A stretch of DNA of 47,983 nucleotides from Colwellia polaris (GTDB taxonomy: Archaea > Nanohalarchaeota > Nanosalinia > Nanosalinales > Nanosalinaceae), in contig JBLGBK010000006.1 of assembly GCA_047617785.1 (NCBI GenBank), forward strand, positions 1 to 47,983, written 5' to 3'. The position numbers were made by a program, and so were the translations under genes. This document shows positions 28,868-47,962 of the stretch, one piece after another (position 1 is the stretch's first letter; each line of letters opens with the position of its first letter). Below the pieces are notes generated by a model. That model made no database searches. It saw only the letters and a list, made by a program, of their open reading frames with translations, and had not been told where the DNA came from.

Positions 28868-30442
28868 CTAATCTAAGTACTTAACCATGTAAGGACCTTC
28901 TCGTTTATACCCAAACTTTCGATAGTACTCGCGAGTACCTACAGCAGAAATTACAACAACTTTCTGTCTACCAACTTCCCGAGCCTTCTCCTCAGCCGCT
29001 TCCATCAAACGCTTACCGTATCCTTTATGTTGAACCTCTCCGGAACTACCAATATCTGTAGCACTACCCATAACTTTCAACTGTCGAACAATCAAAGTGT
29101 CATCATTAATTTCCTCTCTATGACTTTCTGGAGGAGCACGTAAACGAGTGAAACCAAGAATAATGTCGTTATTAACGTCTTCAAAGCTTAGGAAGAACTC
29201 CTTGCCTTCTGAAGCATCATATACTCGTTCAACAAGCTCGGGTTCCTCAGGTTCTAGATTATGTGTCCGCTTAACGTGACCTACTTCTCTGCATCTAATA
29301 CATCGGCAGCGCTCGCCTTCTGAACGTAGTTCCTGCAATGCCATCTGACGCATGTTTGTCAACTGAGGTCCTGCGTCAACCTCTGTACTTGGGATATCGC
29401 GCATAACACGCTTTACTCGTACGTGAGGAGGAATAATGTCTTTCTGAGCCTTCTTTAAACGGTCTTTAGCTTCTTCATCTGTGATTGGTTCGAAGTCACC
29501 TTCTTCGTAGCGTCTGTAAAGTTCGGTGCCTTCGATTACTTCGCAAGGATAGATCTTGATCTCGTCTGGTTGGTAGTCTGAGTTGTTGAAAACTTCTTTG
29601 AACTTCTCAATATCTTTTTCGTAGCCTTCCCCTGGTAGTCCGAGCATTAGGTGGAATGCGACCTTGAAACCTGCGTTCTTCAAACGCTTTGTCGCTTCAA
29701 TTACGGGTTCCATGCCGTGTCCTCTATTAGTTCTCTCGTGAGTTTCATCGAATACGGTTTGAACACCCATTTCTACACGTGTACCACCTAAATCTAGTAT
29801 TCTGTCGATGTGCTCGGTCTCTGCAATGTCGGGTCGTGTCTCGAAGGTTACTCCAACGTTTCTGACTTCTGCTGTCTCGTTCTGAACCTGTGCTTCTTCA
29901 AGAGAGTCTGCTTCCTCGCCGTCGCCGTAAGTATTGAACCCGTCAAATGCTTTCTTCAGAAATGCTTCCTGATAATCTGGGTCCTGGAATGGGAAAGTAC
30001 CGCCCATAATGATTAGTTTAGATTTATCGATGCTGTGGCCGTTTCTCTGATACTGTCCAAGACGATCGTGCACCTGATCGAAGGGGTCGTAGTCGTTTCT
30101 AATTGCTCTACGTGTTGCCGGCTCCTTTCCGGTATAGCTTTGTGGAGCATCTTTCCCTTTTGGACAGTAGATGCATCCGCCCCCACATGCCGCCGGGCGC
30201 GCCATGATTGCTACGTTAGCTATACCCGAGATAGTACGCATAGGCTTGGTCTTCAGTACTTTCTGAGCCTGTTTCTCGTCCTCCTCTGTGAACTGCAGTA
30301 TGTCTGCGTTCTTAGGTAGTCCTTGGAATCCGACTTCTCGACAAAGATTCTTTTTTTCCTTCTCTACGTCATCTTTGTCTTCCAGTTCTCCGGTTTCTAT
30401 ACCTTCAATTATTTCCCGTGAAATATATTCGAGGTCGGACAT
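28868..30442 (-). CDS. elp3: Elp3 tRNA uridine(34) acetyltransferase (radical SAM + GNAT)
   Basis: RTISG, CxxxCxxC (CGGGCIYC), PQSYTG, MGGTF, ETRPD, CRCIRCRE, QHKGYGKRL, ISAVGTREYY. Confidence 0.97.
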   Translation of the reverse strand: MSDLEYISREIIEGIETGELEDKDDVEKEKKNLCREVGFQGLPKNADILQFTEEDEKQAQKVLKTKPMRTISGIANVAIMARPAACGGGCIYCPKGKDAPQSYTGKEPATRRAIRNDYDPFDQVHDRLGQYQRNGHSIDKSKLIIMGGTFPFQDPDYQEAFLKKAFDGFNTYGDGEEADSLEEAQVQNETAEVRNVGVTFETRPDIAETEHIDRILDLGGTRVEMGVQTVFDETHERTNRGHGMEPVIEATKRLKNAGFKVAFHLMLGLPGEGYEKDIEKFKEVFNNSDYQPDEIKIYPCEVIEGTELYRRYEEGDFEPITDEEAKDRLKKAQKDIIPPHVRVKRVMRDIPSTEVDAGPQLTNMRQMALQELRSEGERCRCIRCREVGHVKRTHNLEPEEPELVERVYDASEGKEFFLSFEDVNNDIILGFTRLRAPPESHREEINDDTLIVRQLKVMGSATDIGSSGEVQHKGYGKRLMEAAEEKAREVGRQKVVVISAVGTREYYRKFGYKREGPYMVKYLD

Positions 30443-47816: not shown

Positions 47817-47962
47817 GGGCTCGTAGCTCAGTCTGGCAGAGCACCGGGCTTTTAACAACACGCTAGTTAAAAGCACTGAGCCACGCACTCCGTGGCGATG
47901 ACGAATCGTTTTAACTACTGGAAGAAACCCGGTAGTCGCGGGTTCAAATCCCGTCGAGCCCA
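47817..47962 (+). tRNA. tRNA-Lys(UUU) with a 72-nt intron at position 37/38 (47855-47926); CCA not encoded
   Basis: Acceptor GGGCTCG/CGAGCCC, D stem GCTC/GAGC, anticodon stem CCGGG/CCCGG, anticodon TTT 47851-53, T arm GCGGG-TTCAAAT-CCCGT; BHB helix CUUU/GAAG with UA|A and AA|A bulges. Confidence 0.95.
47855..47926 (+). ncRNA. tRNA intron with box D'/C' motif; putative 2'-O-methylation guide for U34
   Basis: Antisense GTTAAAAGC (47866-74), CTGA (47876-79), hairpin GCCACG/CGTGGC, GCGATGA (47895-901). Confidence 0.65.

Follow-up and report, generated by a model that had tools for sequence, protein, structure and literature searches.

The tRNA-Lys(UUU) gene in the last 170 bases of the window, that is, the whole 47,983-nucleotide (nt) stretch of contig JBLGBK010000006.1 in assembly GCA_047617785.1, has an intron that appears to be a guide RNA for its own precursor. 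We propose, at a probability of about 0.68, that the intron of this pre-tRNA forms a minimal guide of the box C/D type, built on only one kink-turn, and that it would direct 2'-O-methylation of the precursor at or next to the wobble uridine U34. The original prediction, made from the letters of this DNA alone, had regarded the intron as a lysine-tRNA analogue of the guide-bearing tRNA-Trp intron, and the conservation, register, and covariation described below, together with a copy of the same design in tRNA-Met, support this view. What we judge to be new is that tRNA-Lys(UUU) would hold a natural guide of one kink-turn in the same RNA as its target, and that the site predicted for it is a wobble uridine. 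The window is one contig (C6) of a genome of 787 kilobases in 22 contigs (G000; 96.5% complete). The tRNA at 47817-47962 matches Rfam family RF00005 with 58.1 bits (gathering score 29). When introns are allowed, ARAGORN calls it tRNA-Lys(ttt) with a 72-nt intron, and under default settings it calls no tRNA. The predicted intron boundaries agree with both the sequence and ARAGORN. As read from the sequence, the anticodon stem is composed of 47844-48 and 47928-32, residues C27-G31 are 47844-48, and C32, U33, U34, and A37 are 47849, 47850, 47851, and 47854, respectively. Coordinates of all features are given in Table 1; genomes (G), loci (L), and families (f) are cited by our own labels where they need to be told apart.

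The guide element is perfectly antisense to G31-A37 plus the first two intron bases, A and C, as had been claimed. The target strand lies in the precursor, with intron bases 1 and 2 included. The register had been read correctly. A single spacer base, A47875, separates the guide GUUAAAAGC from CUGA at 47876-79, and the fifth base upstream of CUGA, A47871, pairs with U34 (47851), the predicted methylation site. Archaeal box C/D guides carry some 10 nt of antisense sequence just before box D/D', with the target base opposite the fifth position, and the Lys intron, with its 9 bp, has this arrangement. The chance of a perfect 9-mer in a fixed register is ca. 4^-9 by our own arithmetic, and chance origin of the match is ruled out because the module is conserved in relatives. 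The intron also contains its own copy of the anticodon-loop sequence, UUUUAAC. Pairing with this copy was considered as the cause of guide conservation and rejected, for the partner is absent in most relatives (e.g., L006, L008, L009, and L033). With such a copy missing from the introns of most relatives, the guides share no partner other than the anticodon loop.

The guide is followed by a kink-turn that is recognizable at the sequence level by its sheared G-A pairs, its 3-nt bulge with U at L3, and its flanking stem. The sheared pairs are G47900-A47879 and A47901-G47878, and G47880:C47896 is the first pair of the canonical stem. As the hairpin abuts CUGA, the GAU on the opposite strand must be the bulge and the GA after it must form the sheared pairs. 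Box C' reads AUGACGA (47898-47904) and fits the consensus of box C, RUGAUGA, at six of seven positions. The box C' that had been proposed, GCGAUGA, is two bases out of frame and leaves no bulge beside a hairpin abutting CUGA. We rejected this register because relatives with AAUGA (L011, L052, L075, and L077) or UGUGA (L054) at L1-L2 and beyond break its first GA and retain the second. Across 18 Lys and 24 Met modules, the U at L3 and the next GA are invariant, and L1 and L2 vary. The second pair of the C-stem covaries, being C:G, G:C, U:A, A:U, or U:G among the 18 Lys modules. The fourth kink-turn pair joins A with U in 22 Met and two Lys modules, C with C in ten Lys and two Met modules, and C with G, A, or U in six Lys modules; covariation at this pair is suggestive only. 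The description of the intron as a lone D'/C' motif without a terminal C/D pair was borne out, with one kink-turn in Lys and Met modules alike. The near-symmetric, two-part build of archaeal guides, which has about 12 nt between its boxes, is not seen here: our reading of the 72-nt intron found neither a second GA-GA motif (C'/D') with a second guide nor any antisense to position 39 beyond the anticodon-loop helix itself, and no Rfam family besides tRNA, hence no guide-RNA family, matches the locus. The CUGG near the 3' end, once taken for a degenerate box D, was discarded: it overlaps the GGAAG (47920-24) of the splicing helix and is not kept in relatives.

We searched the precursor against G000 and 60 related genomes (61 in all) and recovered a whole tRNA-Lys(UUU) gene in 47 of them; the remaining 14 yielded only tRNA-Lys(CUU), a gene cut by the contig end (G051), or no match. 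The module was defined as the guide, one spacer base, CUGA or AUGA, a stem, a three-base bulge, and GA. By this definition, 18 of the 47 recovered genes carry it in the same register, and they are spread over all five families of the order. Specifically, the module is present in all recovered genes of families f2 (1/1), f3 (6/6), f4 (8/8), and f5 (1/1), in 2 of the 29 of the own family f1 (own genus only, G000 and G002), and in neither of the two outgroup genes. The f1 genes without the module (n=27) comprise 12 that are intronless and 15 with a module-free intron. The simplest reading of this distribution is that the module is ancestral and was lost in most of the own family. Position 31 is G in all 18 module-bearing genes and C in 25 of the 29 module-free ones. 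The introns are 46-214 nt long, and the module-bearing ones cannot be aligned outside the module. The antisense element, the one-base spacer, CUGA or AUGA, and the GA of box C' recur in 18/18 modules, and the N+5 register is identical in all of them, which is the conservation that the original prediction had staked itself on.

The variation within the guide follows the pairing. Guide positions 3, 4, 5, and 8 are invariant in the 18 modules, and positions 2, 6, and 7 vary only in ways that retain the pair (13/13 changed cells). Position 2, opposite G31, is C in 15 modules and U in three; positions 6 and 7, opposite U35 and U36, are A or G. All changes are thus A/G opposite U or C/U opposite G, and positions 2-8 are always paired (18/18). 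Positions 1, 11, and 12 vary freely, with three or four letters each. Hence, conservation stops where complementarity stops.

Changes in the precursor are answered in the guide. Among the Nanohaloarchaeota modules, intron base 1 forms an A:U pair with guide position 9 in 16. The remaining two, from G044 and G052, have C as the first intron base, and they alone have G at position 9 of the guide, which makes the pair C:G. A global pattern scan with one genome per prokaryotic species returned 21 stretches. Twelve are tRNA-Lys(UUU) introns, ten of Nanohaloarchaeota type and two of Aenigmatarchaeota, and the other nine are bacterial and have no tRNA context. The follow-up in Aenigmatarchaeota, around one scan match, gave hits in 27 of 41 genomes and 30 loci (L156-L185, relatives of L118), from which we obtained 24 tRNA-Lys(UUU) precursors. 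All 24 contain an antisense element of 8-9 base pairs (bp) to their own anticodon loop. In these precursors, intron base 1 is A, U, or G and is matched by U, A, or C at guide position 9; G at intron base 2 goes with C at guide position 10; and position 31 with guide position 2 is mostly G:C (or G:U), being C:G in L164 and L168. All four Watson-Crick pair types thus occur at one helix position across both phyla. Substitutions at intron base 1 and at position 31 are compensated in the guide, which therefore pairs with the precursor, and the pattern of covariation shows a helix that joins the anticodon loop and the exon-intron junction to the intron.

We then inspected the distance from the guide base opposite C32 to the final A of box D'. 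It takes only the values 6 and 8. The former is found in 18/18 Lys and 24/24 Met modules of the order and in ten Aenigmatarchaeota introns, the latter in 14 Aenigmatarchaeota introns. The ten Aenigmatarchaeota introns are in the U34 register, eight as assigned by script and two (L160 and L180) by eye. The two spacings suggest two target sites, 34 and 32, rather than free drift. The loop between target and guide is short in many relatives, reading GCAA, GCGA, or GCCA, UUCG in L184, and three nucleotides in L118 and L103. With loops of 3-4 nt, the pairing is most likely formed within one molecule.

The same design is found in a second tRNA of this genome. Its elongator-type tRNA-Met(CAU), at C3:41215-41380, has a 91-nt intron that opens with an antisense element to C30-A38. 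The guide, UUAUGAGCG, is directly followed by AUGA, a hairpin, and GAUGA, and its fifth base pairs with C34. The tRNA-Met precursor was matched in 46 of the 61 genomes, and 30 loci (L070-L099) were fetched. The module is present in 24 of them, with G opposite C34 in each; the other six gave no whole gene by the exon pattern. Box D' of the 24 modules is AUGA in 22 and CUGA in two, and in 22 modules the guide begins 2-9 nt past the splice site. Cm34 of elongator tRNA-Met is described as a guide-dependent modification in haloarchaea (PMC4033218). That two tRNAs share this architecture and both appear to target position 34 is difficult to account for without a guide rule. A loose half-module scan of the genome, a weak test, gave 42 matches; apart from the Lys and Met introns, none of them is both compact and located in a tRNA.

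The guide helix and the bulge-helix-bulge helix required for splicing are mutually exclusive, because both use the same anticodon-loop bases. In constrained folds, C32-U35 pair either with the guide or with GGAAG at 47920-24, and the latter pairing leaves three-base bulges at both splice sites. The ending GGAAG or GAAAG is also seen in the intron-bearing relatives that we compared. In silico, the fold with the guide helix is the predicted minimum-energy fold (-62.0 kcal/mol, or -56.9 kcal/mol with the boxes kept single-stranded), and the splicing-competent fold has -50.9 kcal/mol. The intron alone folds no better than shuffled sequence (z = -1.24).

Table 1. Coordinates of the tRNA-Lys(UUU) gene, its intronic elements, and the ELP3 gene in the window
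Feature	Position	Strand	Basis or remark
tRNA-Lys(UUU) precursor, 146 nt	47817-47962	+	Rfam RF00005; ARAGORN with introns
5' exon, positions 1-37; anticodon U34 U35 U36 = 47851-47853	47817-47854	+	Sequence; ARAGORN intron position
Intron, 72 nt, canonical 37/38 site	47855-47926	+	Sequence; ARAGORN; 3' end GGAAGAA fits bulge-helix-bulge rule, as in relatives
3' exon, positions 38-73	47927-47962	+	Sequence; Rfam; ARAGORN
Target strand G31 C32 U33 U34 U35 U36 A37 + intron bases 1-2 (A, C)	47848-47856	+	Exact complement of 47866-47874
Guide (antisense) element GUUAAAAGC	47866-47874	+	Exact reverse complement of 47848-47856 (9 bp)
Box D' CUGA, non-bulged kink-turn strand	47876-47879	+	CUGA in 16/18, AUGA in 2/18 Lys modules; GA invariant
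Kink-turn C-stem, 6-bp hairpin G47880-C47896, loop CACUC	47880-47896	+	Folds; first pair G:C in 18/18 relatives' modules
Bulge L1-L3 G A U (47897-99), sheared G47900/A47901, then C47902 G47903 opposite U47877 C47876	47897-47904	+	
UUUUAAC, intron-internal copy of anticodon-loop sequence	47909-47915	+	Pairs with guide in fold of free intron alone
GGAAG, central helix of splicing motif, pairs with C32-U35(36)	47920-47924	+	Constrained fold; bulges 47853-55 and 47925-27
ELP3 gene (wobble-uridine C5 modification)	28874-30415	-	TIGR01211, 636.6 bits vs cut-off 350; full-length

In the mechanism that we propose, L7Ae would bind the kink-turn and Nop5-fibrillarin would dock on it. The ribose of U34 would then be 2'-O-methylated following the rule of the fifth guide position upstream of box D/D', and the methylated precursor would refold into the splicing motif, from which the splicing endonuclease would remove the intron. 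The pairing of guide and target most likely takes place in cis. The proteins named in this scheme are encoded in the genome. Fibrillarin (236 bits), the Nop domain (163 bits), and L7Ae (92 bits) all exceed their Pfam cut-offs, so that the core proteins on which the original prediction depends are present, though Nop5 of the own family has no N-terminal domain; the splicing endonuclease was detected with 89 bits. As ELP3 is encoded too, the final nucleoside may be a C5-modified 2'-O-methyluridine.

Several observations weigh against the intron being such a guide. A single-site 'hemi-complex' is reported to be active in vitro with its site specificity lost (Hardin and Batey 2006, PMC1635284), and therefore the fifth-base rule may not hold strictly for a one-kink-turn design. 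Nop5 of this genome (C3:5732-6493; L002:1387-2148) has 254 amino acids. Because it aligns only to residues 121-374 of S. solfataricus Nop5, the own-family protein appears to be devoid of the N-terminal fibrillarin-binding domain. A simple pattern scan, which is a weak test, found no canonical two-kink-turn guide RNA in the genome; the ten matches to a loose two-motif guide pattern were rejected as coding-like sequence. Box D' lies two bases farther from the guide in 14 of the 24 Aenigmatarchaeota introns, so that the fifth base points to C32, and some of the boxes in that phylum are degenerate (GAUGG, CUUA, and UGCA). Within f1, 27 of the 29 recovered tRNA-Lys(UUU) genes are without the module, and no replacement trans guide turned up for these relatives: the pattern for those with C31 gave 23 matches versus 18 in the reversed control, and none of the 21 matches listed has a kink-turn. 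The wobble mark is dispensable or otherwise made in most of this family.

Part of this evidence would suit a helix that works without any methyl transfer. With the anticodon loop and the 5' splice site buried in the antisense hairpin, the module could be a structural or regulatory switch in which binding or release of L7Ae times refolding and splicing or protects the loop. Covariation proves the helix and not the chemistry; the two helices exclude each other, with the guide fold predicted to be 6-11 kcal/mol more stable; the Aenigmatarchaeota have the helix in 24/24 introns while boxes degenerate and spacing differs; and the missing domain of the own-family Nop5 points the same way. We nonetheless regard a mere switch as quite unlikely. 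The spacing is not free, being confined to 6 and 8, which correspond to positions 34 and 32, respectively. The former position is known to be targeted by guides in archaea, and together they make up the two sites of eukaryotic Trm7 (PMC4033218). The box letters that are retained (CUGA, U at L3, and GA) are those of guide RNAs, the Met copy aims at C34, where Cm34 is known to be guide-made, and fibrillarin remains in the operon with nop5. Still further from the data is the idea that the match is due to chance or is a relic of how the intron arose, for example by duplication of the anticodon loop, with no present function. The second copy of the loop sequence in the intron (47909-15) and the unremarkable folding of the intron alone (z = -1.24) would fit such an origin. 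An element that stays in register in 18 genomes of five families, within introns that are otherwise unalignable, and again in a second phylum, does not; all of its changes keep the pairing, with four Watson-Crick pairs at one helix position, and we consider a functionless relic extremely improbable.

The same guide might also act in trans, the excised intron, linear or circular, forming a particle that methylates other tRNA-Lys precursors. The tRNA-Trp intron of Haloferax volcanii was concluded to act in this way (Singh 2004, as cited in PMC11408192 and PMC7994747), and archaeal tRNA introns are reported to be able to persist as stable circles (PMC7994747). The free intron can fold its guide onto the internal UUUUAAC, possibly as a storage form, and 24-143 nt lie between splice site and guide in several relatives. 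Against these points stand the 3-4-nt loops between target and guide in many relatives, including GNRA-type loops and UUCG, which look selected for intramolecular pairing, and the start of the Met guides within 2-9 nt of the splice site in 22/24 modules. Action in trans is therefore unlikely in our estimate. Because intron bases 1 and 2 take part in the covariation, the precursor would be the substrate in cis and in trans alike, and once spliced, a tRNA whose intron began with a base other than A would match the guide less well. A self-guiding intron thus remains the reading that we favour for tRNA-Lys(UUU). More tentatively, and with doubts that are greater than our confidence, it may be extended to the DPANN: Nanohaloarchaeota and Aenigmatarchaeota would then carry a family of minimal tRNA-intron guides (Lys and Met), with one kink-turn and the target in the same RNA. 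These guides would methylate position 34 or, in the second spacing class, position 32 before splicing, as a natural asymmetric C/D particle that in one family operates with a Nop5 lacking the fibrillarin-binding domain. Such a family would speak against the view that site-specific methylation needs two kink-turns.

The best precedent is the 37/38 intron of euryarchaeal pre-tRNA-Trp (Haloferax volcanii; Pyrococcus sR50), which is described as guiding Cm34 and Um39 (PMC11408192, PMC7994747, PMC4033218, and PMC4090602). Both systems place the guide within a canonical intron, aim it at the wobble base of their own tRNA, and have the guide helix compete with the splicing motif. The tRNA-Trp guide depends on L7Ae, Nop5, and fibrillarin, all three of which are encoded here. 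By the accounts covered, the tRNA-Trp intron is a complete C/D and C'/D' RNA with two guides, whereas the Lys intron has one kink-turn, one guide, and no terminal C/D pair. The Lys intron further differs in its host, tRNA-Lys(UUU), in its uridine target, in its DPANN lineage, and in the 3-4-nt loop by which target and guide are often joined. In the parts covered, the only intronic guide mentioned by reviews of 2014, 2021, and 2024 is that of tRNA-Trp. We found no intronic guide in tRNA-Lys in the literature searched.

A DPANN intron of related design is on record. In Nanoarchaeum equitans, the elongator tRNA-Met has a 66-nt intron that gives rise to a stable RNA. This RNA was proposed as a possible C/D guide, and until then only tRNA-Trp introns were known to hold functional C/D RNA (Randau 2012, PMC3491384). 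As described there in words, it has one box D, one box C-like motif, and a GC hairpin, and the tRNA-Met introns of our genome and of 24 related loci fit this description. It differs from the Lys intron in its tRNA-Met host, and the passages covered give neither a target nor a guide register (PMC3491384). Trans guides for the wobble position comprise haloarchaeal sR-tMet, for Cm34 of pre-tRNA-Met, and known or predicted Pyrococcus guides for Leu(CAA), Leu(UAA), Met, and Trp (PMC4033218 and PMC7994747). Like the proposed Lys guide, they serve ribose methylation at position 34, including the wobble uridine of Leu(UAA), and sR-tMet acts on an intron-containing precursor; unlike it, they are encoded by separate genes and have the usual two-motif build. 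One kink-turn with one guide is reported to assemble with the core proteins and to be catalytically active (PMC1635284 and PMC6239191). These hemi complexes and half-mer RNAs are laboratory constructs, and the hemi-complex is without site specificity, whereas the Lys module occurs in nature, is conserved, and shares one RNA with the target to which it is tied.

If our reading is true, intronic self-guiding, with tRNA-Lys(UUU) beside tRNA-Met, would be a general strategy by which very small genomes build wobble modification into the tRNA gene itself. The one-kink-turn design, with guide and target in one hairpin, offers a natural test of what the two-part build contributes to box C/D specificity. 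A guide role would also give a reason for the retention of introns in these tRNA genes. Finally, tRNA-Lys, the decoder of AAA and AAG, would be expected to have a so far unreported ribose methylation at its wobble uridine.

The length of Nop5 differs among the families. The reading frames comprise 247-284 amino acids in 34 of 35 own-family genomes (G000 included) and 384 in G028. In f3 and f4, they comprise 299-362 amino acids, one 676-residue frame apart, and the two that were inspected begin with an N-terminal domain. The Pfam model NOP5NT has no match in this genome; archaeal control genomes likewise stay under its cut-off, so the model is uninformative. Directly upstream of the operon of nop5 and fibrillarin lies a gene for a conserved acidic protein of ca. 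137 amino acids (C3:5326-5736; L002:981-1391), which is present in 24/24 own-family genomes searched. It sits exactly where the missing Nop5 domain would be encoded, and it has no Pfam family and no solved relative. No FtsJ/Trm7-type methyltransferase and no PF01171 PP-loop protein exceeds the cut-off in this genome.

The genome has only 32 tRNA genes according to Rfam and ARAGORN. tRNA-Trp was found by neither program, and relaxed ARAGORN settings gave mostly false calls. The ARAGORN call 'Thr(agt)' at C1:15615-15741 reads by eye as Asn(GUU) with a 53-nt intron.

Some introns of the relatives contain recurrent hairpins. A near-identical palindromic hairpin with the core AACUGCCGCGGCAGUU occurs in the Lys introns L007, L009, L022, and L025 and in the Met intron L099. 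Its place varies, being ahead of the guide in some of them and within the kink-turn stem in others, and it resembles a small insert that is mobile or recurrent. A second hairpin, GAGAAG...CUUCG, is found in an insert of the kink-turn stem in long Lys introns (L006-L008, L015, L021, L033, and L057) and long Met introns (L081, L086, L088, and L097). It persists in the module-free own-family Lys introns L026, L030, L031, L036, L040, and L042, as if these held a remnant of the stem insert. The tRNA-Lys(UUU) gene of L054 (G040; ca. 224-400) has a second, non-canonical intron in the T-arm beside its 46-nt module-bearing intron. One tRNA-Lys(CUU) intron (L175) contains a similar antisense element beside CAGA ... 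UGAUGA. On the Aenigmatarchaeota chromosome L103, at ca. 2370-2480, a module-bearing anticodon arm and 3' half are preceded by sequence unlike a normal tRNA 5' half, and the gene may have a further intron or may be split or permuted.

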